Shown here one piece after another: positions 1,745-21,520 of a stretch of DNA of 31,346 bases; the stretch's first letter is position 1, and each line of letters begins with the position of its first letter. Under the pieces are notes generated by a model. That model saw only the letters and a list, made by a program, of their open reading frames with translations. It was not told where the DNA came from and ran no database searches. Source of the DNA: Chiloscyllium plagiosum (taxonomy: Eukaryota); assembly GCF_004010195.1 (NCBI RefSeq), contig NC_057719.1, forward strand, positions 38,936,887-38,968,232, read 5' to 3'. The position numbers and the translations under genes are program-made.

Positions 1745-1861
1745 AATGATTTTGTGTGAGACATCAGGGTGAATATACATGTAAGTACAAATTACTGTTA
1801 GTTACATTGCCTTAGCACTAAAACAATTCAAACTAAACTAGAACACTACTTTGACACACTG

Positions 1862-2001
1862 AAATAAACACACAAAATGCTGAAGAGACTCAGCAGGACT
1901 TGCAGCATCTGTAGGGAGAGAAATAGAATTAATGTTCAAATTTTCTCCAGTATTCTCTGTGTTTATTTCAGATTTACAGCTTGGCAATATTTTGCCTTTA
2001 T
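1862..2001. mobile_element. Old fold-back PLE-terminus-derived mini-element
   Basis: Imperfect arms GAAATAAACACACAAAATGCTG / CAGTATTCTCTGTGTTTATTTC; flanks TTTGACACACTG (1850-1861) and TTAGACACACTG (2002-2013). Confidence 0.6.
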
Positions 2002-3149
2002 TTAGACACACTGGGTTACTTAGATGTTTCCAGCAGCTGTTCTTTAAATCCTGATATTTATTTTGTAATGTCAGTTAACCCTTTCAGATCCTAAGTGGGG
2101 AGACAAAGACTGAAATAAACAAATTGAATGGAAATGTGTGAAAGTTCCGAACTGATGAGGTTGTCATGAATTGCAAGAAAATTAAAATTTGGCTGAGACG
2201 ATCACCTAGATTAAACAGTTGAGCCTGTGACACACTTTATGATGCAAAATCTGTGTTATCTTCCATCCGTATCCAACTCACTAATCTGCAATTGAAATGA
2301 AAAATGGCTACTCTGTACCTGGAGTGGGCAGATTGTGTGATTTTCCTGATGACGTGGAGGCTCTACTTGCGAGCAAAGTGAGACCCTTCTAGAGACAGTT
2401 TCATGAATAAGGTACTAATGCAGCATAGGTTAAAAACATCTGTAATCATAGAATTCTATATGTGAAACTTAAGCAGTTTCAAATTATGTAAAATACAAAG
2501 CCTGGCTACAAATAATTTTGACCATGTCATTAGTCTCACAAATCTCTGTGAAACAAGTAATCACAAGGGATCTTTAATGTGTCATCTATGGGCCATAATT
2601 CACAAAGACAATTCAAGGTCTCTGAGAGAGAAGAATTGATTTCCTCCTAACTTGCAACTGCAAATGTTTTCCAATATGTTCATGGAGGCAAAGTGCTTTT
2701 CTTGGCTAATTTGGGTGGAGATAACCAGGAAATCTTACCAGATTTACAAACTCTTACTTTATTTGTGTGCGGCAGGATTTGTGCTGCATACATCAGAATA
2801 AGGTCTACTACTGTGCCAAAGATCCATGCTCAGGCACTTCATGGCCTTCTTTATAGGAAACCTCTATGTTTCAGAATATGGATGACATGGAAAACTGCCA
2901 TTTGTGTATGATGCGTATGCTGACTGTTCACGTTACTTAAGATGTGTTCGGTTTCTGATATTCCCTACATAATCTCATTGGAACTATGGCAAATGGATCT
3001 AGTCAAAGCAGAGTTTATCATTTCTGCAGCTGCTGAACAGTACTTACAGATAGATTAATGGGGGAGAAATATGTCAGCAAGCCAAGGACCAGCAGCAACC
3101 TCCAGCCAACCTTCCCAACAGCCTTTGCATGAAAAGGTCACCGCAGAAG

Positions 3150-3440
3150 CTCCCCTCAGGATGTGAAGGAGGTTTGTGAGGCCAGAGATTATTGTCCCCA
3201 ACATTATTTCCTCCAGATGATTGGGATGGAGTCGGAAAATGTCCCAGAAGCCATTATAGAAATATGTCAACTACTGGAGCAGGGCATCTGATCTCAAGAC
3301 GACAGCTGCAATATTTTTTTTATGCAACTGGCTGCTTCCAAGGAACTATTGAAGATCTGTGAGAGATCTCTATATCCATAACCCTCAAATGTATCAAAGC
3401 TATTACTGATGCAATTTGTGCCAGATCATATTGCCTAAAT
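3150..3440 (+). pseudogene. PIF/Harbinger transposase remnant (N-terminal part)
   Basis: Translates, with a stop, to FYATGCFQGTIEDL*EISISITLKCIKAITDAICARS, matching the HARBI1-like FYATGSFQ..GD..GISQ..V..AL motif. Shares 24 identical nt (TACTGATGCAATTTGTGCCAGATC) with ~27807-27830. Confidence 0.75.
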
Positions 3441-4069
3441 ACTAAATGCCTTACAAAAATGATTACTGGGTGGCAAAAACTACCCCCCTGCCACAACCCC
3501 ACTGACTCCCCATCCCCCCACTGAGAGAACAATGCAGCCCATTTTTCAATCAGGGTCACTGCAGAATAGGTAATAGGCCTCCTGACGTGACAGACGTGTG
3601 AGATGTCTGGCAGCACACTGCATAGTGTGCTTATAATGTATATCAACTCACTTTTGTTGTTGTTTATTAAATTTAATGTCCTAATTTGACTGAAAATACT
3701 TATTTATATTTTTTCTCCCACAGCCTTAACTCCCTCACCCATTTTGGCAGTGATTCCTTTGTCCCTTGCAAACTCCTCATTGATCAATGCATGCAGCCTT
3801 ACAATGGTATTTGGTCCTGAACTCTGACTGACTTGAGCATCCATAGACATGACTGAACAGATTCCAGGCTGCTGCCTTTGCAGCTCCCCACCTGATGACT
3901 CGCAATCTCCCTGATAGCTTGTGATGGACTCACAGGACTGACTGCTGATTATTCCCAACTGTATTCCCTGACTGTATCTGACCTGAGCAGACAAATATCA
4001 TGGCTAAGTCCTTGGATTGTGTTTGGACAATGCCTGTGACCGATGGTACTAATATCTCTGATCAACTGC

Positions 4070-5850
4070 AGATCCCTTTGTTTGAACTGATGACTAGGTC
4101 ATGCAACAAAAAGGAGAGGGCCTTCATAAGCATAGAGGATGTGTGAGTTGCTAAAAAAGGAGCAAAGAGGGCCCATGACATATCTTTGGCATACAGGATT
4201 AAGGAAAACAGCACACATTTTATAAGTATTTTAAGAATAAGAATATTACTAGGGAAAGAGTAGGGCTTGTTAGAGACTAAAGGAAAACCTGTCAAGGAGT
4301 CAGAGGACATGGGCGAGGTCCTAAATATATATTTCTCATTTGTATTCACAAAGGAAAAAGACATTGTAACTTCAAATTTCAGTTGGGATGATGAGGTTAT
4401 AGACCATATTAAGATTAATAATGAGGGGGTATTAGATGTTTTAGCAGGCATATAGGTGCATAAATAAGCAGGGCCTGAAGAAATGTTTCCCAGGTTGCTA
4501 TGGGAGACAAGGGAGGAAATTGCAGGGCCACTGATGGGGTTATTTAATATCTTGCTGTCCACAACTGATGTGCCAGATGACTGGAAGGTAGCTAAGGTGG
4601 TTCCTTTGTTCAAGAAGGGTAGCAGGGGTAGGCCAGGTAATTACAGACCAGTTAGTTTGATGTCAGCAGGAGGGAAAAAAATTGGAAAAAAATTCTGAGA
4701 GCCAGGATTAATCAATACTTGGAAAGACAGTGAATGATTAGGGATAGTCAGCATGGAATTGTTGAAGGGAGATTCTGTGTGACTAATTTAACTGAGTTTT
4801 TTGAAAAGGTGACTAAATATCTTGATGAGGGTAGTGCAGTTGATGTGGTTTATATGGATTGTAGCAAGGCCTTTAATAAGGTCTTTCATATGGAAGGCTG
4901 GTCCAAAGGGTAAGAGCCCATATGGGAGCCAAGGCAAGTTGGCAAACTGGATCCAGAATTGGCTTACAAATAGGAGGCAAAGGGTGATGGTGGAGGGTTT
5001 TTTTATGATTGGAAGCCTGTGACCAGTGGTGTACTACAGGGATTGGTACTGTGACCTTCACTGTTTGTTACATACATTCACTGCTTGGATGAGAATGTAG
5101 AAGGTATAATTAGGAAGTTTGCAGATGACATGAAAATTGGGTGTGTTGTTGATACTGAGGAGGATGACCTCAGACTACAGTCTGATCTTGATCAACTGGT
5201 CAATTGGGTAGAGCAATAGCAGATGGAATTTAATCTCAATAAATGTAAAGTGATATTTTTTGGGACGTCTATTAAGGGAAGGATATACACAATGAACAGT
5301 AGATCCCTGGGTAGTACTGTGTATGAGTTCATAGATCCCTGAAGAGATGACAGGGTGACAGGATGGTGAAGAATGCTTATGAGATGTTTGTATTCATTAA
5401 CCAGAGTGTAGAATGCAGGATCAATGATTTATTGTTCAAACTTTATAAAACATTGTTTAGGCCACAGATGGAATGCTGTGTTTAGTTCTGATGTGGAGGT
5501 GCCGGTGTTGGACTGGGTAGGACAAGGTCAAAATTCACAAGACACCAGGTTATATTCAAATAACAGGTTTATTTGAAAACACAAATTTTCAAGGCCTCAG
5601 ATGCAGGGGAGATTCACAAGAATGTTGCCTAGGTTGGAGTTACGAGGAGAAACTGGATAGGTTGAGCTTGTTTTCCTTGGAACAGAGGATGCTCAGGGGG
5701 ATCTGAATGAGGTATGCAAAATTCTGAGAGGCGTAGACAGAGCAGATCAGGAGAATCTTTTCTTCATAACAGACATGTCCATGACCAGAGGGCATAAAAT
5801 TATGGTAGGGAGTAAGTGGTTTAGAGGGGACCTGAGGAAATGTTTGGTGT
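4070..5850 (+). mobile_element. CR1/HER1-like LINE ORF2 fragment, decayed
   Basis: Peptides DDWKVAKVVPLFKKGSRGRPGNYRPVSLMS, WIQNWLTNRRQRVMVEG and KFADDMKIG (~5115-5140), with many stops and frameshifts. Confidence 0.92.
5491..5598 (-). mobile_element. Terminal fragment of another repeat (probably a PLE terminus) nested in the CR1
   Basis: Interrupts CR1 homology between the 'QFW' and 'RRFTRMLP' regions; ATGTGGAGGTGCCGGTGTTGGACTGGG..CACCAGGTTAT resembles shark PLE ends as I recall them. Confidence 0.5.
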
Positions 5851-5964
5851 TTGTTGGATGATATAGATATTGTGGGCTAAATCTTGTTCTTATGTTGTAT
5901 GACTCTACGACTTTTTGACATGGCCATTTGGTTGAATGAATGTGCAGAGTAGTTTCATACATGA

Positions 5965-6230
5965 CTCTGGTGAGTTGAATTAATGAATCTGGAATTGAAA
6001 TATTGTTTCAGTAATAGTAGTCATAGGACTATCATTGACATAAATCTATCAGGATCACTGATATCCTTTAGGTCAAGAAAGTCTGCCACACTGACCTAGT
6101 CTAGTTTATGTATGACTCCAGACCCACACAATGTGGTCCACTCCTAACTGCCTTCTGAAACTCAATTCAAGACAAACTAGGAATGAACAACAAATACTGC
6201 AGCAATGTCCACATCTTTAGAAAGAATTTA
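5965..6230 (+). mobile_element. tRNA-headed SINE-like repeat, 5'-truncated and diverged
   Basis: Homologous to 1-183 and 24590-24840 (ATCTGGAATTGAAA..TCACTGATATCCTTTAGG..GACTCCAGACCCACA..CTGAAA..CAACAAAT). Confidence 0.7.
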
Positions 6231-6599
6231 AGAAAAGCTGTTAATGCAGTCAGGACTGGTAAGCAAGTGTTGTCCACTTATGTTTAAAAATAGATGTTTT
6301 GTTTTAGGTTTAATGTGTAGGTTGTCTGGATGTTATGGGGGACATCAACAGCGTACACAGCTCTTTTGTTGTGCGGTTCTAATGCCCACCTCCATGAGAC
6401 TGCATCCAAGACAGTTTTGTCAAGGAGAAGGCAAGGTCAACAATTGTTTTCGAGCTTCTTTATAACATTATTTATTACATCCTAAGACTAAATGCTACAA
6501 TACATGGTATTCAGTGATCCATGGTCAACATCGGTTATAGTATTTGAAAGAAGAATGTTAGCTTGGGAGTGTTGTTGAACACATTAACGTTGAGCTACA

Positions 6600-6800
6600 T
6601 GTGTTTAAGAGAGACTAGTGGCTTGCTACAAATCATTAGATTGGCTATTGTTTCCTCCATGGCAATAACTTGGCCAAACAATGTCAACTTGCCAACCAAT
6701 CAGCACACATTTTTCCTTTCATATCAGTTGTCATAATTGTTTGAAATTGGCAATCTTGCATTTGCCCTGATAAGTGAAAGTTGAAAAGCTTGAACAATAT
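6600..6800 (+). mobile_element. Old PLE terminal region with degenerate HHR-like core
   Basis: CTTGCCAACCAATCAGCAC resembles the reverse complement of ~29170-29190; ends in CCTGATAAGTG..GAAAAGCTT (decayed CUGANGA..GAAA). Confidence 0.4.
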
Positions 6801-7097
6801 TTCACAATATTAAAAAGAATTATACTGTTAATGATTTCTAATCTCAAATATGGTGAGGAGTGGAAACTGCAACTTTGGAACAGCTTGCCTTAATGTTGCT
6901 TCCTTATTATTTCCATTTTGATTTCCATCATTCATGTAACTTTATTCACAATTAAACAAAAACCTCTAAGACAAAAATATGCTAAACATATGGCAGATTA
7001 GACTGGACCATGTGATTACAAATGTTTGTTGTATAACAAATCTGACAAATAAATTTGCTCGGGATTAAATCTGTCTTGAATTTGAAAGTCATACACT

Positions 7098-7337
7098 CAT
7101 AGAGTCATACAGCATGGAAACAGACCCCTTCAGTCCAACTTATCTGTGCTGATCAGATTTCCCAATCTGACCTAGTCCCATTTGCTAGCACCTGGCCCAT
7201 ATCCCTCTAGAGCCTTCCTACTCATATACCCATCCAGATGTCTTTTAAATGCTGTAATTGTACCCGCCTCCACCACTTCCGCTGGCAGCTTGTTCCATAC
7301 AGACACCACCCTCTGCATGAAAAAGTTACCCCTCAGT
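7098..7337 (-). mobile_element. CR1/HER1-like LINE 3' end
   Basis: Collinear with 15900-16140 (CATAGAGTCATA..CAGCATGGAAACAGACCC..CCTCCACCACTTCC..CTGGCAGCT). Confidence 0.88.
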
Positions 7338-7558
7338 AACCCATATAAAATCTTCGTATGACGTAGTAAATGTGATGAAAAATAGGAGACCCCAAAGATA
7401 GTCTGTCAAGGGACTCCAGGGCCAGTGATTCAGAGACAACAAGACAGGCCACTTCAAGAGATATTCATTATTGGAAGGTAGGATGGAAGATGCGGGTGAG
7501 GAGGATTTAAGATGACAATTGGGAGTGGAGAAAAGAAGGCTATGGATTATCCTAACAT

Positions 7559-7771
7559 AGATGGAAATGTGTTGCTGGAAAAGCGCAGCAGGTCAGGCAG
7601 CATCTAGGGAACAGGAGAATCGACGTTTCGGGCATTAGCCCTTCTTCAGGAATGGCTAATGCCCGAAACGTCAATTCTCCTGTTCCCTAGATGCTGCCTA
7701 ACCTGCTGCGCTTTTCCACCAACACATTTCCATCTCTGATCTCCAGCATCTGCAGACCTCACTTTCTCCTC
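7559..7771. mobile_element. Fold-back PLE mini-element with 13-14 bp TSD
   Basis: 82-bp arms 7559-7640 / 7654-7735 (3 mismatches), 13-nt spacer, 36-bp one-sided extension; ATTATCCTAACAT(A) at 7546-7558 and 7772-7784. Confidence 0.9.
7617..7653 (-). ncRNA. Minimal type I hammerhead ribozyme motif
   Basis: Minus strand reads AUUC-CUGAAGA-A-GGGC-UAAU-GCCC-GAAAC-GUC-GAUUC: conserved core, 4-bp stem II, loop-less palindromic stem III. Activity untested. Confidence 0.7.
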
Positions 7772-7862
7772 ATTATCCTAACATACTTAACTGTTGTGCA
7801 GTGGGATGCAGGGCACAATGCTGCTTCATGTGGTCCAGCTAGATTGGGTGATAAATACCTAA

Positions 7863-8350
7863 GGGCCAAAAATGGGGGGTGACCAGGGTAGAAAACTTAA
7901 TGAAACCAAAACAGAAATTGTTGGTGAAACTCAGCAAGTTCGGCTGCACTGTGAGATGAAAGCAGAGCCAATACTCCATATATAAGGAGTCTGGAATCAA
8001 TTGTGAAGTCAATAGACCAGTTCAGAAGTCTAGACTGAAATGGCATTGGTGGGAACTCTATATTCCTTTGGAGTAAAGAGCTGGCCACATTGGATGAAGT
8101 GAGTCAGCAGATGCATACATTTTGAATATGTTCTCTGCATATAATGTGCTTGAAGATGGAGCTGTCAAAATATCTTAAAGGCTCATTGTGCCAACATCAG
8201 ATGACTATTTATTGACTCCAGGAAATCCACTAGGTGAACAATGAAAGTTAGTTAAGGACATATGACAGGAACTGTCCTTTGAATGAAACGGACTTGGATG
8301 TGCTATTGGACGAAGTCATAGTTGAGGCTGAGGGAAAGTGTCCTCAGTAG
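7863..8350 (+). mobile_element. Possible Harbinger terminus plus Myb/SANT-like gene remnant
   Basis: TAA|GGGCCAAAAAT terminus-like start; NETDLDVLLDEVIV at ~8282-8325 resembles the first helix of Harbinger Myb-like proteins. Confidence 0.3.
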
Positions 8351-9033
8351 CACAATATGCGGCAAATATGACAGAGATATCATATATTGTTTGTGTCTAA
8401 CATTAGTCACTGTTAAACACATGTGGCTACTGACCAATATGCTCAACAGCACTCCCAAGCTACTATTCTACCGTCAACTACTATACCAATGTTGACCATT
8501 GATTTTACTGATTATTGTTAAAAATTGCTGTCTACAAAATGGCTGCTATCACCACATAACATCAATACCAACAACGTTCAAGCTTCACAAACAATTCACT
8601 GTACTTATAATGTGATTCTGCACAACATATAATGCTCCCGAAAAGAGAATTGTGAAGGTTGGAGGTAAAAAATATTTTGGTAGTTGGTAAATAGTTAATT
8701 GAAAAGGATGGCACGCAGTTTACAAGATACTATTTTGAATTTATTATGAGTAAGGTTATTCAAGCATAGACCAAATTGAAAATGATCACAATTCTACCCA
8801 TTACTGATTAGTGGAATTGTCTACATGCCACATTAATCACATTTTCCCCTTCCTTTTCCTCTGCTGTTTTGTGGTCCATTAATTCCATGGTTATTCTTCT
8901 CCACTTGAAGAATAAGCAGACAACAGTTATTTTTGAAGTCTTCTCAGGCTTTAATACTCAAATTTCCTTGATTTGTCTAAGTCATATAAACTCTGCTGGC
9001 AGCTTTCTTCTTTCACCAGTATTCAGAAACATT

Positions 9034-9354
9034 GGGGTGGCACGGTGGCTCAGTGGTTAGCACTGCTGCCTTACAGCGCTAGGGACCCAGATTTGACTCC
9101 AGCATAGGGCGACTGTTTGTGTGGAGTTTGCACATTCTCCCCATGTCTGCGTGGGTTTCCTCCGGGTGCTCTGGTTTCCTCCCACAGTCCAAAGATGTGC
9201 AGGTTAGGTGAATTGGTCATGCTAAAATTGTCCAAAGAGTTAGGTGCATTAGTAAGGGGGAATGGGTCGGGGTGGGTTACTCTTCGGAGGGTTGGTGTGG
9301 ACTAGTTGGGCCGAAGGGCCTGTTTCCACACTGTAGGGAATCTAATCTAATCTA
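9034..9354 (+). mobile_element. HE1-type V-SINE
   Basis: Full head GGCACGGTGGCTCAGTGGTTAGC, V-domain, CR1-like tail and (AATCT)n end. Confidence 0.92.
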
Positions 9355-9739
9355 TATCTGTATTCTACACTTGTTCCTGTGTTTCTCCTTAGCAGTCTCA
9401 TAAAATTGAGCAATTGTGACTATAACCAAGATATTGCATTGTAATTTTGGTAAAACATACTCGTGGAGTCATTTTTCAGGCCTGGCAGGCCACTTGTGTT
9501 CCAGCAATTAAGTCCTCCATTTTTGGACTTACTACAGGAGGCAGTGAGATAACCTGACCTCTTTTCTTTTCTTGGTTGTTTGCAGAAGGCTTTTTTTGAT
9601 GGACTATTTTAGAAACTTTTTGAGGGCAATAACTTTAAAGAATAGACTCAAACAGATTCACAGCAAGATCAAATCAAAAGAAAGCATACATTTTTATTTA
9701 TGTAACTCTTTTCTATTTAGCACAGAGATGGTGCCACAT

Positions 9740-10385
9740 GGCATGATGGAAATTATCCCCAGTGGGGGGACATGATCTCTAAGGACTGTGTGGTGGTCAC
9801 ACCTACTGATACTGTCATGGATAGATGCATCTATGATAAGGGGGTTGGTCCTGCTATTGGGACCAGGCATAACCAGGGATGATGGTGGTGTTACCTGGGG
9901 CATTGTAAGGTCTGATTGTGATTATGGGCATGTTGGCTGTTGTTTAACAACTCCCCTAATGTTACTAATAGCTCCCAGAACTTAGCAAGGAGGGCTTTGC
10001 AGGGTGGACAAGGCTGAGTTAGCTGTTGTTGCTCATGGTGCTTCGGTTGATGCCAGGTGGTCAGTCCCATTCTTTTCTTTTTTTTTCTTGTTGATAGCTT
10101 CATGAGTATTTTCCTTGACCATTTCAGAGAGCAGTCACAAGTCAAACACTTTGCCATAGGTCTGGCGTCTTTGTAGGTGCGACCAAGAAAAAACAGCAGA
10201 TTTCCTTTCTTAAATGGCATTAGATTGTATTTTTTTTAAGTCAAGAATGGTTTCATGGTCACTGTTAAACCTATAATTCCGAACATTTTTTTAAAAATTC
10301 AAATTCCACCAATGTCCCAGTCCACGTAGCAGAGATCCTATCAATGTATTAATAGTCTGACAACAATACTACAACGCCATTAATC
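9740..10385 (-). mobile_element. 5' end of a LINE: SINE-like head followed by an AP-endonuclease remnant
   Basis: 10120-10385 (-) matches the SINE-like family. It then reads into KALLAKFWEL..LGEL, TTIIPGY and DASIHDSISRCDHHTVL (degenerate APE 'SDH' motif). Confidence 0.65.
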
Positions 10386-10432
10386 TCCTTCACTTTCTAT
10401 GTCCAGTGAAATACTTTTTCTAAAACATTAGT

Positions 10433-10740
10433 GGGCAGCACGGTGGCACAGTGGTTAGCACTGCTGCCTCACCGCGCCAGAGACCCAGGTTCAATTCCCG
10501 CCTCAGGCGACTGACTATGTGGAGTTTGCACATTCTCCCCGTGGGTTTCCTCTGGGTGCTCTGGTTTCCTCCCACAGTCCAAAAATGTACAGGTCAGGTG
10601 AATTGGCCATGCTAAATTGCCCGTAGTGTTAGGTGTAGGGGTAAATGTAGGGGAATGGGTCTGGGTTGCACTTCGGCGGGTCGGTGTGGACTTGTTGGGC
10701 CGAAGGGCCTGTTTCCACACTGTAAGTAATCTAATCTAAA
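10433..10740 (+). mobile_element. HE1-type V-SINE
   Basis: A/B boxes (GGTTCAATTCCC), V-domain and GGGCCGAAGGGCCTGTTTCCACACTGTA tail. Confidence 0.93.
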
Positions 10741-11514
10741 AACTCCCAAATTGTAATGATTTTTGCACTTTCAAATTTCAAACAATTGAACAGTTAACAC
10801 TAAACTGAGCATTTCACACCTTGTTATACATGGATAAGTCTGTTAATCATTGCAGTGATAGATCAGTTACGATGGCTGAATATGTATTCATTTTAATTAA
10901 TCGATTGATGCACTGAATAACAGGCATTCTCACATGTAATGAAGAGTGAAATTATGTTTCCTTATTCAGTAGTTGTGCAATTCGACATCACCATCACAGC
11001 TCTCAAAAAGCAAGCATTTTCTATCCTTGGGCGAAGAGAGCTGTAACATTTAGAAAATCTATATCTATAGTGAGGAAAAAATGAAACTGTAACAATCTGG
11101 TTGCATGCTAAGCAGTATCAAAATACACTGCTTCTCCAAACTTATAACACCATAATCTCTCAAGGGGAAACTGTTCCCTATCAGAAAGAGAATTAAGTAC
11201 CCACTGCTAGTCTGGTTAATCAGATCACTCTTCCATGGAAATGGTATACCTACCAGTCAACATTTCCAAATTGCTATTCTATCCTTTGAGTGTTCATTTC
11301 ATCACTCTTCCTTGTTCAATTCTCAAAAACAAACTGTGACAATATTGTTTCCATCTAATATGTGATGGGTACCATTGGCATGCCATTTTGCAACACTTTA
11401 AAGACACTCATTAGCTGAAAACTTGTGGGAAAAAAATAACTCACTCCACTTCAACACCCTGACTTGATTTCCACAGTTTGGAGCTTGGTTTTTCTCGATA
11501 AAACCAAATTTCTA

Positions 11515-12135
11515 AATACAAATATTCAAATTGGGAGCTGTAGTAGGTCACTTGGCTCCTCACGCTTGCACTGCTTATTGTTAAGATTATGATTAATTCG
11601 ATTTACTCCACATTCTCATCTACCCATGGTAATCTTTCATCCACTTGCTTATCCAGAATCTATCTACCGAGGCCTTAGTGATATTCAAGGACTGTGCTTC
11701 CATTGGCTTTTGCAGAAGAATAGACCAAAGTTTCAAGAACGTGTGAGAAAAATATTCTCCTTATCTCTGTTCTAAATGGGCGACCCCTTATTTTTAAAGT
11801 GACTGTTAGTTGTACAAGCTCTCACATGCACCCTGCCAAGACATCTCAAGAACAAGCAATCTCTTACTCTTCTAACCACCTGTAGATACAAGCCTAGGCT
11901 GTCCAAGCTTTCATCACAAGACATTCCAGGTTTTAGTCGAGTAAATCTATTCTTAACTGTTTCTAATGATTCCTTAAATTAGGAGATCAAACTGCTTGCA
12001 GTCCTCCAAATATGATCTCATCAATATTCTGTTTAGCGGAAGCATGACCTCTCTACTTGTGCAATCAATTCTCTTCACAATAAACAATATCATTCTATTA
12101 GCTTTTCCAATTAATTGCTGTTCCTACATATTCTC
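11515..12135 (-). mobile_element. Old CR1 LINE 3' end
   Basis: Reverse-oriented CR1 3' UTR/C-terminal motifs (AATCTATCTACC..GCCTT..ATATTCAAGGACT, AAATGGGCGACCCCTTATT, GGAGATCAAACTGC). Confidence 0.7.
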
Positions 12136-12139
12136 TTTG

Positions 12140-12770
12140 AAGGACAGCCAGAAGGAAACAGAAAACTAGTATTTTACATACTGGAAGCATTACCTAATAT
12201 GGAAACTCATTATTGTTGAAAAGGAAGCTGTTGAAAATGATGTGTGGTCATGTGAGAGATTTTCAGATTATGTATGGGTTTCAAGAGTCTTACCAAGACT
12301 GATCAGAAACTGCTGATCTCTGTGTTAGGTTAAAAAAAATGACAAGAATGCATCTACTATTCCTTTGCTTCATATATTTCATCCAAGACCAAAACTTGTA
12401 AGGGAAGTTATGGATATCAGTATATGCCTCCCTAATGCTGTTATCAATACCAACTGATAAAGAACTTTTGGACAAACTCAGTTCATACTTTCAAGTAACA
12501 GAAATGTTGTGAACAACAATCTAAAGAAAGTTTAGCTTAAACAGAGAAGAACAGCAAACGTGTCACAATACATCAATATTGTATGGAATTCTGGCCAGAA
12601 AAGGAACCTACAAACATAAAAAAACAAGTCACTATTGTTGATGGCATATTTCTTTTTGATGACAGCCTAATTTGCCAATGGGAAATTCATGATGTTTTTA
12701 AGGTTGCAACACATCGCCGGTTCACCAAAAAATCCTCAATCTAAAGGTAAGTAGAAAAGCTGTAGTTAAA
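12140..12770 (+). pseudogene. Gypsy pol remnant (RNase H and integrase fragments)
   Basis: EKEA....WSCERFSDYV (~12218-12275), TDQKLLISVLG (~12298-12330) and SPKNPQSKG (~12722-12750; cf. SPxYPQSNG). Confidence 0.7.
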
Positions 12771-12879
12771 CAATGGGTTACCTTCAAAGACATGATGGTT
12801 TGGGCACAGTCAAGGTGTGTTATTTACAAACGTGTAAGTAGGACAAACAAATCCAGAACTTCCACAATGGCAAAGAGTA

Positions 12880-13400
12880 TGGAGATTAAGAGAAGGCCTG
12901 CATAGTTGTTAAGAAAATTTAAGGGAATGTAAGTACAAGGATATTGAAGAACATGAGAACGATAAATGTGTAATTTTCCTTAGACTCAGGGGTGGTGGCA
13001 AAGAATGGGAGAATTGCAAACATTACACCCTTGTTCAATAAAGTCTAAGGATAAGCTAAGCAATTACAGATCAATCGGTTTAACTTCAGTGGTGAGGAAG
13101 CTTCTGGAAACGATAATTTGTGACAGAATTAACTGTCACATGACAAGTGTGGGTTCATTAAAAAGGGCTTGCATGCATTCCTTAAAGGAAAGTTATATTT
13201 AACTATTTTTTTATGAGATAACAGAACTAATTAATTTGATAGTGCTGTTAATGTGATGTACATGGACTTCCAAAAGGCTTTTGATGCAATGGGGACACAA
13301 CAGACTTGTGGGCAAAGTTAGAGCTCGTGGGTTAAAGGGAACAGTAGTAACATGAATACAAAATTGGCTGAGTAATAGGGGAGAGTAATGGTTAATGGAC
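12880..13400 (+). mobile_element. CR1 LINE RT fragment
   Basis: NYRSIGLTSVVRKLLETII, YMDFQKAFD and IQNWLSNR motifs. A further CR1 3' piece lies at ~13850-13930. Confidence 0.85.
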
Positions 13401-14027
13401 ATTGTTATGATCCTATCAGATGATAATAGTCAGATCTTAGAGTGAAACCTGGCTTAATATATTGTAAATGTTATTATTGGAAATAGGTCACCATAGTGGT
13501 CAGTCACTGAACATAGTCACATGAGGCTATCAATTACTTTTAACAAAAGAACATACATTTATTACACAAAATGAAAGAAAACAACAAAGCTATATAGGTA
13601 TACAGACACTGTTCCAGTGAAGTACCATGCAAATCTTAACTTCAAATTTTTTACTTAACTGATGAGGTCGCAAGTGTTTACTTCCAATGATTTTCTGCAC
13701 ATTCACCAGATGTGATTTTCTTTATTGTTTTTCCTACCCAAGACACACTGCCAAGCTAACTCACTGATGTTTCCTCACTGAATCCTAAGATAAAAATACA
13801 GGCATTCATTTTTCAGCCCTGTCCGCGTGAACTGCTAAAACAGCTAGAAGGGAAAGATCCAATTGATGTATTCAAGAGGACATTAGATAATTATTTGAAT
13901 GGAAACAATGTGCAGGTTATGGAAAAATGGTACTGTCCAAGTAACATAACAACCTGCCTTGCAGGGTATACTTTTCAGAGCTGTAGAAAATTTGCATAAA
14001 GTACATGACAATGTTTCCTCAGTGATA

Positions 14028-14028
14028 A

Positions 14029-14067
<39 letters not shown>

Positions 14068-14079
14068 CAGAGAGAGAGA
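14028..14079. repeat. Compound (TG)n(AG)n microsatellite
   Basis: Seen directly. Confidence 0.95.
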
Positions 14080-14557
14080 CTGATCTTCTCTTAGACTCCT
14101 GGGTGATTCCTGAAGTACTCTCAGAAGATGGAAAACATGAATTCAAACAGGCAAGGGGAAAGTGTTAAACGTTACTACTGTGCAGATGATCATACTGCAT
14201 AAATCGAACATTAATTCAACATGAATGAGTGTTTTGTGTGTGCATGTTAATTAATTTGATCACCAGTTAAGTGGGACATCTACATTTCTCCATTTTCCAT
14301 GTTCAGGTGGTCTAACGGTCTGCTGATTTCTTATGCCACCTTCTCCACATTAGTCAGGGTGACAATTATTAGAGGGCAACTGCTAGTTCTGTAGAATTCT
14401 GCATGCTCTTGTATAAGTAACAAAAGCAGTATGTTATAAGTGAGAAGTAAGTTTGCAAGGATTGAACCGCAAATTGGAGGAAAGCAACAGTGATGGATGT
14501 CAGCTGTTCATTTGGAGACATAAGGAGGTGTCTTAAGAAAGAGGAATAAATAGAGCT

Positions 14558-14747
14558 CAAAGTTTGTGCGAAGATTTGTAGCTCGGGTGCTCGTTGTTGT
14601 GGTTCTGTTCGCCGAGCTGGAAGTTTTTGTTGCAAACGTTTCGTCCTCTGGCTAGGCGACATCATCAGTGCTTGGGAGCCTCCTGCGAAGCGCTTCGGAC
14701 GAAATGTTTGCAACAAAAACTTCCAGCTCGGCGAACAGAACCACAAC
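14558..14747. mobile_element. Fold-back PLE mini-element (second family) with 12-bp TSD
   Basis: 51-bp arms 14596-14646 / 14697-14747 (1 mismatch), 38-bp one-sided extension; ATAAATAGAGCT at 14546-14557 and 14748-14759. Confidence 0.88.
14631..14671 (-). ncRNA. Minimal type I hammerhead ribozyme motif (second family)
   Basis: Minus strand reads GCA-CUGAUGA-U-GUC-(12 nt)-GAC-GAAAC-GUU-UGC: stem I GCA/UGC, stem II GUC/GAC, palindromic stem III. Confidence 0.7.
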
Positions 14748-14823
14748 ATAAATAGAGCTGCAAACTGCATTGGTCAGGTGACTGTGAAAATGTCTCAGTC
14801 TGGAGTTTGGCACATATATATGG

Positions 14824-15043
14824 GAAAGTGAAGACTGCAGATGCTGGAGATTAGAGTCAAGATTAGAGTGGTGCTGGAAATGCACAACAGGTCGGGCAGC
14901 ATCCAAGGAGCAGGAAAATTGACATTTCGGACAGGAGCCCTTCATCTGCTTCCTGATAAAGGGCTCCCATCTGAAAAGTCGATTTTCCTGCTCCTTGGAT
15001 GCTGCCTGACCTGCTGTGCATTTCCAGCACCACTCTAATCTAG
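14824..15043. mobile_element. Fold-back PLE mini-element with 12-bp TSD
   Basis: ~87-bp arms 14860-14946 / 14955-15041; ACATATATATGG at 14812-14823 and 15044-15055. Each arm carries a mutated HHR core. Confidence 0.88.
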
Positions 15044-15069
15044 ACATATATATGGTCTGCTACTCTGCT

Positions 15070-15571
15070 TTCTTACCCTAATAACATTATTGAAATTTTT
15101 TGATACTATATACATGAACAAGAGGAACACTTCTATGCTAATGTGCTGAATCACCTCCAGCTATCCTGCCTCCGTTACAGGCTGACGTTTGCCACCAAAA
15201 CACAGTGAAGAGTGTTTTTCTGCAGGACATAACAGTCCACATCCTGACACACAAGGTACCACAGAGAAATAAGAGACAGTCTTCTCATGTTGAGCCCATA
15301 TCATTACATTTACCTCTCACCCCTGGTTGTTCTGGAATAGATCTATTCTGATTCCTATCAGGGTCCCTCTAAATTTGGAGCTTTTGCTGTCAGGTGTGAA
15401 TCAATATCACAGTTGCAATTTTCAATTTGTTGGGAAACCTGGAAGCAGGAAGCTGATGTCATGATTGAGGTAAAGATCCATGACAAAGTAAAATCAAGCA
15501 ACTTTTAGGATCTAAACCCACTGCATTCCCCTCACATCAGCATGAATGATTCTGAATGGTAAAATTCTGCC
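15070..15571 (-). mobile_element. Harbinger terminus with Myb/SANT-like exon remnant
   Basis: Minus strand starts GGCAGAATTTTACC; later GGKRQPVTEAG*LEVIQHISI...KNFNNVII followed by a GTAAG donor resembles the Harbinger Myb-like W-xx-V..(W)xQCxKxFNDL pattern. Confidence 0.5.
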
Positions 15572-15893
15572 ATTAAACTTATTTTCAACTTTTCACAAAT
15601 GTTACCTAATCTAATTATTTTCACATTTTAATTTAATAATAAATGTTGTCTTGCTTATGTTGCTCACATGCTGAGACAAATAAATTGTGTCTGACATTAT
15701 CTCTTAAGTAATGCCACTAAATAAAGATCAATGGTAATTCAGCTCATTGATCTTTGTGCCATCTTGCTAACAGGAAAATAGCCACTGCAGTCAGTGTATG
15801 TGCGTTGTATGTAAAATCTGTCTGGGAGTCAACTGGAAGCACCAAACAACTACATTTCCTGACCGTTTATAAATAAACTTACCTAATCGGCAA

Positions 15894-16975
15894 ATAGAGT
15901 CATAGAGTCATAGATACGTACAGCATGGAAACAGACCCTTCAGTCCAACCCGACCAGATATCCCAACCCAATCTAGTCCTACCTGCTAGCAATTGCCCGA
16001 ATCCCTCCAAATCCTTCCCATTCATATATCTATCCAAAATGCCTCTTAAATGTTGCAATTGTACCAGCCTCCACCACTTCCTCTGGCAGCTCATCCATAC
16101 ATGTACCACCATCTGTGTGAAAATGTTGCCCCTTAAGTCTCTTTTATATCTTTCTCCTCTCATCCTAAACCTATGCTATCTAGTTCTGGACACCCCGACC
16201 CCAGGAAAAGACTTTGGCTATTTACCCCATCCATGCTCCTCATGATTTTGTAAACCTCTATAAGGTCACCCCTCAGCCTCCAACACTCCAGGGAAAACAG
16301 CCCCAGCCTGTTCAGCCTCTCCCTACAGCTCAAATTGTCCAACTCTGGCAACATCCTTGTAAATCTTTTCTGAACCTTTTCAAGTTTCACAACATCTTTC
16401 CGATAGGAAGGAGACCAGAATTGCATGCAATATTCCAACAGTGGCCTAACCAATGTCCTGTACAGCCGCAACATGACTTCCCAACTCCTGTACTCAATAC
16501 TCTGACCAATAAAAGAAAGCATACCAAACACTTTCTTCACTATCCTATCTACCTGCAACTCCACTTTCAAGGAGCTATGAACCTGCACTCCAAGGTCTCT
16601 TTGTTCAGTAACACTCCCTAGGACCTACCATTAAGTGTATAAGTCCTGCCAAGATTTGCTTTCCCAAAAAAGCAGCACCTTGCATTTATCTGAATTAAAC
16701 TCCATCTGCCACTTCTCAGCCCATTGGCCCATCTGGTCCAGACCCTGTTGTAATCTAAGGTAACCCTCTTCACTGTCCACTACACCTCCAATTTTGGTGT
16801 CATCTGCAAACTTTCTAACTATACCTCTTATGCTCACATCCAAATCATTTATATAAATGATGAAAAGTAGTGGACCCAGCACTGATCCTTGTAGCACTCC
16901 ACTGGTCACAGGTCTCCAGTCTTAAAAATAGCCCTCCACCACCACCCTCTTTCTTCTACCTTTGAGCCAATTCTG
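15894..16975 (-). mobile_element. CR1/HER1-like LINE, 5'-truncated with intact 3' end
   Basis: ORFs 16631-16909 (QGSVLGPLLFIIYINDL, KFADDTK), 16160-16588 and 15900-16163; (CTATGACT)n tail. Confidence 0.95.
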
Positions 16976-17289
16976 TACACAAATGGATGGACACACACAC
17001 ACACATATTTCAGTGTTGAAACTTGAACTCAGACTCTCATTGACTCTCCACCCCCAATAAAACCTGCATCTAGTCCCCATGATCTTCCCAGTCCTGTGTT
17101 GGGAGGAGTGTGTTTGTGTGTGTGTGTTGGGGGGTGGATGGGTGAGCAGAGAGGGGAAAATGTGGGCGTTGAGGATCAAGCATGTGATCTACATTTTAAA
17201 TTCCCAAACTCCGCTGATATATTTGAGAAAGGGAAAGGAAATAAAAGATTGAAAGTTAAGTTAGAAATGGCTGCATGTAGAGCAGGGCA

Positions 17290-17535
17290 GGGAGAGACAG
17301 ATAAAGACAGAGAGACACACGGACAGAGAGAGACAGCGACAGACACAGATAGAGAGAGACAGACACAGGGACAGAGAGACAGACAGACAGACAGACAAGG
17401 AAAGAGACAGAGAGACACAGGGACAGAGAGAGAGAGACAGACATACAGGGATAAAGACAGAGAGAGACAGGGACAGAGAAAGAGGCACACACATGACAGA
17501 GACAGACAGACAGACAAGCAGATAGATAGAGACAG
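17290..17535. repeat. Degenerate (AG)n/(AGAC)n simple repeat
   Basis: Seen directly; it accounts for the low-complexity ORFs 17096-17695 and 17176-17565. Confidence 0.95.
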
Positions 17536-17920
17536 AATGTTAGAGTCTGGGAACCACACATACAACAGGAAAATCCTGAGGGATCTTCAGCAAATATCCC
17601 CCTCTCTTCCCAGCCCTGTGTGTGTCAGGGGGTCTACAGTCAGGCTCTTAGACACTAGTGTGGGCCCAATGTTTAATATTTTCAGACTGCACTGACACAA
17701 CTAACAAGACTTCAAAACAAAAGAGTTGCAAATTTATCTAAATCCTTTTATTTATTTTTCAAAATTGGCAGCAACAAGAATATCTTTCCCCATGTAACCA
17801 GTATATTAAACATAACTAGAATGACTATACTGTGAAGTTCTTTCCATCTCAGGAGGAATGTTGCAATAAAATTACACACATTTCGAACATTGAAGACTCT
17901 CCCATTACCTTACCTCATTT

Positions 17921-18240
17921 AATATCACTCCATGGAACCAAAGAACAGTCATAATAGACTTGAAATGTTAACTCTGTCTCCCTACACACAGATGCTGCCA
18001 GACCTGTTGAGGATTTTCTTTCCAGCACTTACTGCATTTATTTCAGAATTCTAGCAACTATAATATTTTGTCTTTATCCTAGTCAACCTAGTCTGCTTTC
18101 CCATTGCTGTTACAACTTTTTCAAAAGTTCCACCTGCAAATTATCTAATCCTGGTACAAGTTGAGCCTCATCATCTTGATTTTGTATCCTTTCTAGGTAC
18201 GAAATTAGCTTTATGTATTTTATGACCCTGTCCACTTGTA
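17921..18240 (+). repeat. 320-bp direct duplicate of 19549-19868
   Basis: Base-by-base comparison shows only two A/G differences. Confidence 0.95.
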
Positions 18241-19299
18241 TGATTTCCAGTGGTAATACAAATAAGATCTCTCCTTGCACATATCCTGCAACCTAATTAT
18301 ACTTATGTTAGTAATTCACATTCATTATGCTTTATTTTCTGGTGTGTGTTGCCTTAGAAAATAATATTCCTATACCCTTGGCTTTCCATTTTTTATTGAA
18401 GATTTGTGACCATAAGGTTTTAATGATCATTTCATTCAAACATAGGTTTAAAATGCTTAATTCTAAATATTTGTCAGTACAAAGAGTTCATTAATTTCCA
18501 AGAGAAAGTTCAGCATTTTAACAATCAGATTAAAAATAATATGATATAGTATATTTTGCATTTCCTTCATTTCATAAGCTCCTTCACTGATATTTTCTCA
18601 ATGCAGAATTAAATTTATCCACCCATGAAACTATCTGATATCACAGTAATGCTTTTTGTACTTATTCATGCACTGCTGCCTTTACAGTAAAGATCAGGGT
18701 GCTGCTGAATGAAATATTTTTTTCCTTTTGAAGCTGATGATAGTGCTAAGTACAAGCTAGTTTAACTCATTCCACCCTATCAAAAGCCAGTTACACTGAC
18801 AGAACAGTATTTCAGAGAATTAGTGAAAGTTACAGCACTGGAACTATTTGTTTGACAATAAATATATAGTTATGTTTTTTTTCTCCCCTCATCCTATAAA
18901 ATTCCTTTATTTCTTTTCCTTTCAGGGTACTATATTGTGTCTCTGAGCCAGACACTCAATCCAAGACTTACTAGCTATAAATGATTTGTTTGTAAGATGG
19001 CCACAAACTGTGAATTATTCCAATGTTCTTAGGCCAGGTGGTAAGGTGTAAGGGTCTTGGTCAGTTATGATTGATATGGGGTGGTGCACCCGAATCTGTA
19101 GCCACTGGCAGCAGGTTAGCAACCTGATCCAGGAAAAATTAGTCATGGAAACAGACAAAAACACAAACTTTGGCTGCTTTATGTGTTATCGATAGATATT
19201 GGAAAACTTAAAATCCAAGACTAATTCTTTTGAAATTTATTTGTGGAGTATTTTATATTTTAGTCATCTCTGAACAAAGAATGATTTTCTATACTGGTC

Positions 19300-19930
19300 A
19301 CTCGTTCCTGTTTATCATTATTGGAAATTGCAGGTCTTTTGTTGACATCTCACAGACTGGTAGAAACATTTTCCTCTATCATAGATTATTGATGTCTCTT
19401 TTAGAGCATTCTTCAACTTTCTTATTATAGTGAAGAAAGGTCTAACTTCTCAAATCTTTCTTCATAATTGTAACCGCTCTTCATTTCTAACATTCTAATC
19501 AATCTAATAAATCTGGGGAAAGAGAAACAGTGTTCATACCTTGAGTCGAATATCACTCCATGGAACCAAAGAACAGTCATAATGGACTTGAAATGTTAAC
19601 TCTGTCTCCCTACACACAGATGCTGCCAGACCTGTTGAGGATTTTCTTTCCAGCACTTACTGCATTTATTTCAGAATTCTAGCAACTATAATATTTTGTC
19701 TTTATCCTAGTCAACCTAGTCTGCTTTCCCATTGCTGTTACAACTTTTTCAAAAGTTCCACCTGCAAATTATCTAATCCTGGTACAAGTTGAGCCTCATC
19801 ATCTTGATTTTGTATCCTTTCTAGGTACGAAATTAGCTTTATGTATTTTATGGCCCTGTCCACTTGTACTGACACAATTAAAATGTTCTTGCAGTACTTA
19901 ATTGTTCAGTGCTTGACAATGTGGTCCACG
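19300..19930 (-). mobile_element. Very old CR1 fragment containing a fold-back mini-element (19507-19706)
   Basis: QVDRAIK and LERIQ..LVPGLDNL peptides on the - strand. The insert is flanked by CTAATCAATCTA (19495-19506) / CTAGTCAACCTA (19707-19718). Confidence 0.55.
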
Positions 19931-20103
19931 GACTCTTTTCTGTGTGCTATTAGTCAGGCCTAGAGGTAGTTACAGAGTAACAGAAACATAGATTTTTGAA
20001 GGGGAAGTCATGCTTGATAAATCTGCTGGAATGTTTTGAGTGACTCTAGTAGAGCAGACATGGGGGAGTCAGTGGATATTATCTACCTGGATTTTCTGAG
20101 GGC

Positions 20104-21520
20104 TTTTCTTTTGCAAAAATGTACTTTATTCATAAAAATTCTTTATGTACATACACAGTTACTAAAGCAGTTCAGATATGTGCAGTCTTTGCAGATGAAG
20201 ACAAAAGCCAAACATTGGGGTTTGATTTTCTCCATAGTCACAACAAAACCAAAGAATGAAGCAAGGTAATATTTACATATATCTGAGGCACTGAGACAGT
20301 CCGATAACTGAATTGACCCCATTATACTTTGGCAGAAAGATCTTAGATGCTGGCCTTAGCAGCAGCTACCCCAAGCTTTGGTGCATCCCTCAGCATGTGG
20401 TGCTGGACCTTGGAATGTCCCAATTTGCAACACGCAGTTAAGATCAACTCTTTGCCCTGGAAGACCAACAAGATTTGGGCAGACCAAAGAGCATCTTTCA
20501 CTGAGTTGATAGTCCTCCAGGCATGTTCAATGTTTGTATCTTGGGGAACAGATTTAGAGCACAGAGTCATGTATCATGGAGCTGTCGAGATGAGCCTTGA
20601 CAGAAACCACTACATCTCTCTCCAGACTTCCTTTGCAAAGGAATATTTCATCAAGAGACATGTGACAGTTTCATTCCCTGATAGCTGCTTCAATGGCTGC
20701 ATGTGGTGGAGCAGAGTCCTGGCATGCATAGGTAGTGCCCTTCTCACCACCAGCCAAGCGATGTCTTGGTGTTTGTTGGAAAGTTATGGTGATGAAGCAT
20801 TCTGAAAAATGACTTTGGCAGTTTGTTCAGGGAACCACACAACAGTATCAACCCTCTTCTTTTCCCACAGGGTCTCAGGGATGCTATGTGCTGGCCACTG
20901 GCTGATGGACTTGGGGTCAAAGGTGTTTTCTTTCACAAACTTTTCATTAAGGGACAGTTGATACAGAACAATCCAGCTACTTGAAGCATTCTGCAGCAGT
21001 GAGGCCAGTCCAATCCTTCACAACACCAGGGACAGGGAGAACCTCAGTACATAGTAACATTTGGTATCTGCAATCCAAGGATCTATGCACAGCTTGATGA
21101 GGCCACACATGAAGGTGGCCATCAGGATGAGAATGGTATTGCGTACATTCTTCCCCCATTATGTTTGGCTTTGTACATTGTGTCCTTTTGTACCCTGTCC
21201 ATCTTTGAACTCCAGATGAAATGGAAGATAGCTTGAGTGATTGCAGCAGCACGCCCCAGCCCCTCCAAATCAAATACCCAGCCCCTTCAGATATTCTTTC
21301 CTGGCAATGAAGGGTATAAAGAATTGGTCAGCCCAGTTACCAAAGAACATGGCCTTGCTCTTGCCTCGATTTACCTTGGCTCCCAAGGCTTTTTGGACTG
21401 ATCATGGACATTCATGATTCTGTGTACTGACAGTGGATCAGAGCAGAAAACAGCAATGTTGTCCATGTACAGGGAGGCCTTGACCTGTAGCCATCTACTA
21501 CCTGGAGTAGTCACCCCTCT
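20104..21520 (-). mobile_element. Tx1-type L1-clade LINE, 3' half, decayed
   Basis: ASLYMDNIAVFC (YxDD motif, ~21443-21478); C-terminal WRTINSVKDALWSA..LLVFQ..LRDA; AATAAA and an A-rich end at ~20104-20130. Confidence 0.8.

Follow-up and report, generated by a model that had tools for sequence, protein, structure and literature searches.

Five hairpin-shaped inserts lie in a 31,346-nucleotide stretch of the Chiloscyllium plagiosum genome (contig NC_057719.1; hereafter the window), and they are stumps of Penelope-like elements (PLEs). Each stump most likely arose in its own insertion event, following a pattern that has already been described for PLEs; the fold-backs are thus integration footprints and not a new kind of element. 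In fact this architecture, with an inverted pLTR, a tail on one side and a target site duplication (TSD), is already in print; here it occurs without an open reading frame. The inserts, named E1 to E5, are composed as follows (positions of the window; in brackets the arm ends relative to the predicted hammerhead cut).

1850–1861, left TSD of E1, 12 bp, matching 2002–2013 at 11 of 12 positions
1862–2001, E1, decayed family-C fold-back
about 1862–1939, minus strand, left arm of E1, tail-less
about 1940–2001, plus strand, right arm of E1, short, with a tail of about 30 nt
2002–2013, right TSD of E1
7546–7559, left TSD of E2, 14 bp, exact
7560–7653, minus strand, left arm of E2, family-A PLE 3′ terminus, tail-less (−32 to +63)
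7654–7771, plus strand, right arm of E2, family-A terminus including a tail of ~36 nt (−19 to +99)
7772–7785, right TSD of E2
14546–14557, left TSD of E3, 12 bp, exact
14558–14696, minus strand, left arm of E3, family-B terminus with a 38-nt tail (−62 to +77)
14697–14747, plus strand, right arm of E3, tail-less (−12 to +39)
14748–14759, right TSD of E3
14812–14823, left TSD of E4, 12 bp, exact
14824–14946, minus strand, left arm of E4, family-A terminus with a tail of ~34 nt (−26 to +97)
14947–14949, junction of E4
14950–15043, plus strand, right arm of E4, tail-less, with a degenerate hammerhead (−31 to +63)
15044–15055, right TSD of E4
19495–19506, candidate left TSD of E5, matching 19707–19718 at 10 of 12 positions, suggestive only
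19507–19706, E5, decayed family-C fold-back with its centre near 19565 at a degenerate hammerhead; internal deletion in the left arm, tail on the right arm
19707–19718, candidate right TSD of E5

Each fold-back consists of two PLE 3′ ends placed head to head, with a tail of ~30–38 nt on one arm only (5 of 5 inserts; 34–38 nt in E2–E4, about 30 nt in E1 and E5). The preliminary description had assigned one architecture to all five. This is clear for E2, E3, and E4, whose arms agree at 81/85, 50/51, and 79/87 positions and whose inverted-arm local alignment scores are 154, 98, and 142 against 25, 23, and 28 for the best of 60 shuffles, a control that was run with a coarser split step than the real arms. 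The decayed copies score 34 against 25 (E1) and 30 against 26 (E5). As the arms of E1 pair over only about 25–28 nt and the left arm of E5 is missing about 45 internal bases, both are weak as hairpins; in the family alignment both arms of E1, and likewise both arms of E5, map to one terminus. The TSDs described for all five inserts hold for E2–E4. Among 4050 random position pairs of the window a match of at least 11/12 was found in 0.05–0.15% and of at least 10/12 in 0.35–1.6%, the ranges reflecting the allowed boundary slack; the TSD of E1 is therefore credible and that of E5 only suggestive. The coordinates given earlier were right within one base, and we moved the start of E2 to 7560 because 7559 is the final base of its left TSD. 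Most of E5 lies within a 300-nt near-exact duplicate that had not been recorded before (17921–18220 equals 19549–19848 with 2 mismatches).

The termini fall into three families, A (E2 and E4), B (E3), and C (E1 and E5), where at least two unrelated terminus sequences had been described. A blastn search of family B against the other termini gave no match, and family C shows a weak relationship to A (nhmmer E about 5e-6). The arms within one element share private variants and are 95% identical in E2 and 91% in E4; E2 versus E4 gives 78–82%, and the two belong to different family-A subfamilies. The window also contains a single terminus, which lies outside the original finding, and two longer PLE copies.

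866–995, plus strand, E0, single tailed family-A terminus (−32 to about +98)
24829–25723, plus strand, rearranged longer PLE copy with reverse transcriptase (RT) pieces at 24883–25047, a GIY-YIG region at 25274–25634, and then a family-A terminus
29468–31346, minus strand, longer PLE copy with RT open reading frame pieces, a SINE insertion, an N gap at 29613–30270, and a family-A terminus

E0 is joined to a perfect 73-nt inverted copy (793–865) of the local sequence 413–485, and no TSD was found for it. The terminus of the 24829–25723 copy comprises 25684–25723 and its hammerhead part is missing. The RT pieces of the 29468 copy are 86–92% identical to the bamboo-shark proteins P0001 and P0002; its tail-less end is at +62, and the family-A arms are 77–87% identical to its terminus. 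The homologues P0093 and P0064 combine RVT_1 with a C-terminal GIY-YIG domain in Pfam, P0093 above the cut-offs and P0064 just under the curated cut-off; a direct Pfam scan of five short window fragments returned no RT or GIY-YIG match and one irrelevant weak match. Judged from these sequence comparisons, the family-A terminus belongs to an element coding for an RT with a C-terminal GIY-YIG domain. Families B and C have no ORF-bearing copy in the window, and other copies of family B extend further upstream (48 contigs, agreement 0.86). The PLE origin proposed earlier is thus carried for family A by the RT- and GIY-YIG-coding copies and for B and C by architecture and motif only. In viral_contigs a degenerate family-A motif had 0 matches and a PLE protein query 0 loci; the 48 loci of a 19-nt motif in metagenome_contigs were dismissed as chance, as none matches an arm beyond about 35 nt.

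The hammerhead pattern CTGANGA..GAAAY matches E2 (7649–7625, minus strand) and E3 (14668–14638, minus strand), and the 29468 copy also has an intact core (29557–29533). There is no match in E5, nor in E4, whose two copies are truncated or mutated; a match in E1 was discarded as spurious by its position. An inversion point in or next to the hammerhead had been reported for the three well-preserved copies; cores are present in E2 and E3, and E4 has none. In E3 one arm overshoots the motif by 28 nt, and the second starts inside it. Helix II forms in 3/3 folded family-A copies, the full hammerhead not being the minimum-energy fold. No hammerhead family of Rfam was matched; this search gave only sub-threshold miRNA-hairpin matches at E4 (mir-3158 and mir-515) and two weak matches.

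The breakpoints are clustered and not uniform along the PLE, in a small sample of 11 short arms from one window that had partly been picked for their fold-back shape. The inner ends lie at −30 to −32, the 5′ edge of the hammerhead, in five of the 11 arms, the partnerless E0 among them, and the outer ends of family A occupy two fixed positions (+62/+63/+63 and +97/+98/+99). Not one of the 11 arms starts at the predicted cut: ten include 9–62 nt upstream of it and the remaining one starts about 40 nt downstream. The earlier suggestion that the RT stops at the ribozyme is therefore rejected in the form of a run-off on cleaved RNA.

The fold-backs are probably independent, dead-on-arrival minimal insertions of endonuclease-bearing PLEs that were primed twice and whose short cDNAs were joined. 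The GIY-YIG domain, attributed to the enzyme by family membership, would nick both strands 12–14 bp apart, the length of the TSDs seen here. Reverse transcription of PLE RNA would then be primed by both 3′-OH ends from a pair of neighbouring internal start sites, the tailed end (about +98 in A, +77 in B) arising from one and the tail-less end (+63, +39) from the other. For the anole element Poseidon of Anolis carolinensis (PAc; Frangieh et al. 2024, PMC11167929), in vitro work has demonstrated two RT start sites and the extension of both strands, and the proposal of the preliminary description that the inserts are the smallest outcome of double-ended priming at a staggered cut fits these data. 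As in PAc, the tail would be bounded by two RT start sites, both strands would be nicked and extended, and the hammerhead lies just upstream of the start sites; that hammerhead cleavage is dispensable in PAc agrees with arms running through the cut. Unlike here, the part of that report we draw on describes no ORF-less fold-backs or end positions of short cDNAs. How the two ends are coupled to the two start sites is our supposition. Both cDNAs would be short, copying through the uncleaved hammerhead and mostly ending at or near its 5′ edge, possibly because the pLTR template is 5′-proximal and the RT runs off close to the start of the RNA, or because the RT cannot pass the motif when it is folded or bound by protein. 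Their ends may be joined head to head through a quasi-palindrome at the motif start (E2) or without homology (E3), and gap filling would leave the asymmetric hairpin between the TSDs. Such hairpins would normally not be re-copied as units.

A possible, though unlikely, alternative is that the insertions are independent but the inverted arm arises by self-priming (snap-back) of one short cDNA or antisense RNA at a palindrome near the hammerhead; copying would then proceed as far as the tail-less position, and resolution of the intermediate by the endonuclease would leave the tail on one side. Self-priming has been proposed for inverted PLE junctions (PMC3846280) and endonuclease-mediated resolution for the tail (PMC8557442). 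The junction of E2 on an 8-of-11 quasi-palindrome argues for snap-back, and the private variants common to both arms of each element are equally compatible with it. On the contrary, the junction of E3 is without visible homology and leaves a perfect 8-nt palindrome in its own core unused, and the in vitro work found RT starting at either boundary of the tail, with nicking and extension of both DNA strands (PMC11167929). It is highly improbable that the inserts are remnants of recombination or deletion, that is, longer inverted PLE insertions which collapsed after insertion to their two ends between the original TSDs. Long inverted repeats are prone to deletion, and internal deletions are present in the left arm of E5 and in the 24829–25723 copy; however, E3, the youngest element by its arms and its apparent absence in organism B (see below), is already minimal, and the recurrent inner ends at −30 to −32 include that of E0, a terminus without a partner arm. 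That the inserts are MITEs, or DNA transposons bearing terminal inverted repeats (TIRs), has next to no probability and is already contradicted for family A. The inserts are short, have inverted repeats and are TSD-flanked, but on the tailed side the repeat does not reach the terminus, as the tail lies outside it, and the family-A arms match retroelement ends that also occur singly (E0, 25684, 29468). The view that the arms are PLE termini and not transposon TIRs is thus upheld for family A by this match.

The preliminary description had also considered a self-propagating, non-autonomous hairpin class, in which PLE proteins acting in trans would re-insert transcripts of some fold-backs as whole units. 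We regard this as very unlikely. It is in its favor that pLTRs can act in trans (PMC3846280), that non-autonomous PLE derivatives exist (PMC8557442; bioRxiv 10.64898/2026.07.22.740005), and that a single-cell polyA RNA run contains family reads on both strands (3482 placed). Nevertheless, all five element junctions in the window differ, E2 and E4 represent two subfamilies, and the junction of E4, the only one whose depth was checked, is not amplified: its summed contig depth is 631–2014 versus 12–17 million at 14993 in the arm (three DNA runs), about 10^4-fold lower, the divergent centre of E4 lowering depth there for reasons besides uniqueness. The differing junctions and this low depth favor independent insertions over an amplifying hairpin family. 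Some other joints lie above single copy. Among 15 of the 341 joints, a few on single contigs reach several to about 30 times single-copy depth (about 11–16): the joint 14880 to 14971 has a depth of 372 in run X13, 15.5 in X5, and 0 in X1, the joint 14890 to 14970 has 138 in X1, and the joints 14602 to 14721 and 14639 to 14721 have about 135 in X5 only. These hairpin-shortening joints could be multiplied junctions, but the deep ones are discordant between two runs of one organism, pointing to artefacts of the libraries or to nesting within other repeats. Joints on opposite strands (about 14857–14862 to 15026–15033) were rejected as real inversions; most likely they appear because reads match the E4 tail on one arm and the better-matching other arm. 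Moreover, the RNA arms are predicted to pair at −159 kcal/mol, which would bury the hammerhead and leave only the tail free, and RNA depth is zero on the unique flanks of E3 and E4 in the about 2% of the run that was read. A related reading, which we consider quite unlikely, holds that ‘strong-stop’-like double-primed hairpins are a main product of shark PLEs and that a subset re-amplifies in trans via the free tail; as part of this joint reading the cDNAs would end at the 5′ border of the hammerhead, left uncleaved, because the PLE RT initiates at internal sites close to the RNA 5′ end. The joints above single copy are its candidate re-amplifying hairpins. If true, it would define a class of hairpin retroelements that could easily pass for MITEs and that would supply very large amounts of intronic double-stranded RNA.

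For A-to-I editing, suggested earlier as a check, the RNA run has 90 A>G or T>C places versus 44–51 in the DNA runs; transversion places are raised similarly (99 versus 47–69), so there is no editing-specific signal. No RNA dataset was among the indexed datasets that contain 7000–8500.

E3 appears to be absent and E4 present in the related organism B. A contig of this organism departs from the window sequence at 14545, adjoining the left TSD of E3; the empty site was deduced from two tables, and the end distance given there does not fully agree with the length of the contig. This distribution is consistent with the arm divergence of 2% in E3 and 9% in E4, on either side of the flank divergence of 3.1% (39/1276).

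Inverted pLTRs with a one-sided 31-bp tail, TSDs of 8–10 bp, and an ORF in between have been described by Arkhipova et al. (2013, PMC3846280), and inverted 5′-truncated copies with a 30–40 bp tail by Craig et al. (2021, PMC8557442). The inserts share with such canonical endonuclease-bearing PLE insertions, as depicted there, the head-to-head terminus, a 30–40 bp tail at one end, the TSD, overlap or a palindrome at the junction, and strong 5′ truncation. In contrast, no ORF or direct tandem lies between the arms, the whole insert measures 140–220 bp, the TSDs have 12–14 bp instead of the 8–10 bp in A. vaga (PMC3846280), and the copies are very dense, with seven family-A termini in 31 kb, five of them short. 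Like the non-LTR retrozymes (bioRxiv 10.64898/2026.07.22.740005) they are short, non-coding, PLE-pLTR-derived, and hammerhead-bearing. However, retrozymes, as characterized in that preprint, consist of tandem head-to-tail units that each contain a complete motif; we rejected this identity as the inserts are head-to-head singles with TSDs and at most one complete core per element.

Published minimal hammerheads likewise have a CUGANGA core, one unpaired base before helix II, and palindromic residues replacing helix III, and opposite-strand motif pairs 100–700 bp apart have already been noted in Schistosoma; unlike these, a complete predicted core is found in only one arm (E2, E3) or in neither (E1, E4, E5). 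In L1 twin priming the second nick primes on the element RNA, which gives an inverted segment inside the TSD, as proposed here. The segments of L1 cover different parts of the RNA, whereas both arms here copy the same stretch, which calls for two RNAs, one RNA used again, or snap-back.

A search mostly of open-access main texts found no dedicated paper on ORF-less PLE fold-backs in sharks, from which absence from print does not follow. Frangieh et al. (2024, PMC11167929) describe the later steps of PLE integration as still unvalidated. Very many minimal, TSD-bounded products would form a natural archive of how far apart the nicks lie, how the two RT start sites are coupled, and where and by what means cDNA ends become joined, which is testable computationally on one assembly. 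Fold-back stumps of this type could be misfiled as MITEs or as miRNA hairpins. In addition, presence/absence sites such as that of E3 are usable as phylogenetic markers.

The five short fold-back inserts, each consisting of two 3′ ends of a Penelope-like element (PLE) head to head, are real, PLE-derived and most likely formed anew at each insertion. The evidence comes from the window sequence, from contigs of four public runs mapped on 14100–15850, from protein searches and from published papers. The window DNA is vertebrate and rich in repeats. In a protein search its PLE fragment came nearest, among named proteins, to those of the bamboo shark Chiloscyllium punctatum (88% identity) and then to those of other sharks and rays, and the window is thus shark-like. 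The inserts and a single PLE end are located as follows:

866–995, plus strand: E0, single PLE end
1862–2001: E1, fold-back, terminus family C
7560–7771: E2, fold-back, terminus family A
14558–14747: E3, fold-back, terminus family B
14824–15043: E4, fold-back, terminus family A
19507–19706: E5, fold-back, terminus family C

The preliminary description assigned target-site duplications (TSDs) of 12–14 bp to all five fold-backs. These are exact in E2 (14 bp), E3 (12 bp) and E4 (12 bp) and imperfect in E1 (11/12) and E5 (10/12); in a set of 4050 randomly drawn position pairs, matches of 11/12 or better made up 0.05–0.15% and those of 10/12 or better 0.35–1.6%. Arm-versus-arm scores are 154, 98 and 142 for E2, E3 and E4 (shuffle maxima 23–28), and 34 and 30 for E1 and E5 (shuffle maxima 25–26). 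Thus, by TSDs and arm scores, E2, E3 and E4 are unambiguous and E1 and E5 are old and weak. The hammerhead, reported for three well-preserved copies, has a complete core only in E2 and E3; both copies in E4 are cut or mutated. E5 overlaps a 300-nt duplicate (17921–18220 versus 19549–19848, 2 mismatches, 1.6 kb apart), which complicates its reading. The duplicate begins within E5 and extends ~140 nt into the right flank of E5; no TSD was seen, and it is either a local templated insertion or an assembly artefact.

Where at least two terminus sequences had been claimed, the window contains three families, of which C cross-matches A (nhmmer, E ~5e-6). Family A gives seven strong nhmmer matches in the window, namely the four arms of E2 and E4, E0, and the termini of two longer copies:

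24829–25723: longer PLE copy; RT-matching region, GIY-YIG-matching region and family-A terminus in this order (tblastn with the homologous proteins P0093, P0064 and P0003)
29468–31346: longer PLE copy; RT pieces 86–92% identical to the bamboo-shark proteins P0001/P0002 and, beyond an N gap (29613–30270), a family-A terminus with intact core

The top Atlas match of the first copy is a GIY-YIG cluster (0.95, PF01541 on 20% of members). P0093 has RVT_1 and GIY-YIG both above the Pfam cut-offs, and P0064 has both with GIY-YIG slightly below. The terminal peptide of P0010, a zebra-shark read-through protein, weakly matches the family-A hammerhead region (E 0.007). On this sequence evidence, family A represents the pLTR at the 3′ end of an EN+ PLE. 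For families B and C no ORF-bearing copy is found within the window; in other copies in the genome, sequence of family B reaches further upstream (48 contigs, agreement 0.86). The copy at 24829–25723 starts with an inverted 5′ piece (24829–24885), an RT segment that its direct part lacks. Further deletions come after this piece, the hammerhead being among the lost parts, and the copy is a twin-priming-like or a rearranged insertion.

Counted from the predicted hammerhead cut, the family A outer ends lie at two fixed places, at +62, +63 and +63 in tail-less and at +97, +98 and +99 in tailed arms; those of family B lie at +39 and +77. Exactly one arm is tailed in all five fold-backs. A tail of 30–40 bp on one side is a published PLE feature (PMC8557442, PMC3846280), and its two boundaries are two RT start sites in vitro (PMC11167929). 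The inner ends are at −32 (E0), −32 and −19 (E2), −26 and −31 (E4) and −62 and −12 (E3), and in the decayed copies at about −30 and −32 (E5), −9 (E1 left) and, from alignment, about +40 (E1 right). The clustering of breakpoints proposed earlier holds, as 5 of 11 arms terminate at the 5′ boundary of the motif, in a small and partly selected sample. Run-off of the RT at cleaved ribozyme RNA, one sense of the proposed stop at the ribozyme, is rejected since 10 of 11 arms cross the cut and none begins there; the crossing agrees with PMC11167929, in which uncleaved RNA is the main substrate in vitro.

The junctions of the five fold-backs are all different. Arms within an element agree at 81/85 (E2) and 79/87 (E4) and have private variants in common, whereas E2 and E4 are only 78–82% identical to each other. 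In three DNA runs, with 58,000–68,000 contigs mapped on 14100–15850, the summed depth is 12–17 million at 14993 in an E4 arm versus 631–2014 at the E4 junction (14947–14949). Since summed contig depth is no copy number and the divergent centre of E4 itself lowers junction depth, this ratio of 8,000–22,000 is a rough indication that the E4 junction is unamplified. Counting against this, several of the 15 joints listed out of 341, at which a contig skips between window positions, shorten the hairpin and exceed single-copy depth. The joints 14880->14971 (depth 372, run X13 from organism B) and 14890->14970 (depth 138, run X1 from organism A), one contig each, exceed single-copy depth several-fold to ~30-fold, each in a single run, and are candidate multiplied fold-back junctions or library artefacts; two E3 joints have a depth of ~135 in run X5 only. 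As the deep joints are a single contig per run and runs of one organism disagree, they may be artefacts or come from copies nested in other repeats, which is as plausible as true amplification.

Organism B, a related organism, probably carries an empty site for E3. In organism A (X1) a left-flank contig enters E3 by 25 nt. In organism B the contig of record 9 (run X13, depth 11) departs from the window sequence at 14545, directly ahead of the TSD, and continues for another 84 letters, a length not fully reconcilable with its end-distance figure of 44; a depth-11 contig spans 14791, immediately right of E3. The simplest reading would be that organism B skips one TSD and E3. It has the right junction of E4 (record 16), and this order fits the divergence of the arms (2% in E3, 9% in E4) and flanks (3.1%, 39/1276).

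As a whole mechanism, we somewhat favor independent double-primed PLE insertions. Two staggered nicks 12–14 bp apart would allow both ends to prime cDNA from two internal RT start sites; the short cDNAs would traverse the uncleaved hammerhead, end near its 5′ edge and be joined head to head, E2 using an 8-of-11 quasi-palindrome and E3 no homology, before gap filling. The window itself shows the TSDs, the end positions and the variety of junctions, and two-strand nicking with two start sites is known from another PLE (PMC11167929). We infer the coupling of the ends, the reason why the cDNAs stop and the way in which they are joined. Snap-back self-priming, proposed in PMC3846280, accounts equally well for the variants common to both arms but does not explain the junction of E3, and we consider it unlikely. 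The self-propagating hairpin class of the preliminary description is disfavored by the five differing junctions and the low E4 junction depth, with some deep joints remaining; it is quite improbable, though a minority of copies may belong to it. The E2 RNA is predicted to fold as a single long duplex (−159 kcal/mol, z −23), in which the ribozyme would be buried.

E0 is compatible with a failed double-primed insertion of this kind. Its tailed family-A arm ends at −32 and runs into a perfect 73-nt inverted copy (793–865) of 413–485, a source 307 nt upstream, and no TSD was found at E0. The structure may also have arisen through a cDNA that switched to a local DNA template, or through a PLE end that landed precisely on the border of a 453-bp inverted-repeat element.

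The fold-backs have the layout of a canonical PLE insertion minus the ORF and are a miniature case of the known PLE pattern, with some value as an integration record. Minimal hammerheads in close opposite-strand pairs were recorded earlier in Schistosoma (PMC4209133); on ORF-less PLE fold-backs in sharks we found no paper in a search with poor reach into subscription papers, repeat databases and supplements. Retrozymes are rejected, as the fold-backs lack tandem units, and so are MITEs, as the inverted repeat is not terminal and is retroelement-derived.

A degenerate solo family-C terminus lies on the minus strand at 7901–7978 (nhmmer E 3e-5), with no partner arm seen. Candidate decayed hammerhead-like or PLE-tail-like stretches, noticed by eye at 6680–6800, 2100–2175, 13657–13690 and 23020–23080, possibly belong to other PLE families. 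Dispersed inverted repeat pairs of unnamed families (82–84%) are present at 6536–6585/8436–8485 and 24113–24236/27933–28056. A SINE-like repeat with (AATCT)n-type tails occurs in four copies (1423–1747, 9034–9355, 10432–10744 and 30552–30880), one of which splits the long PLE copy within its RT ORF.
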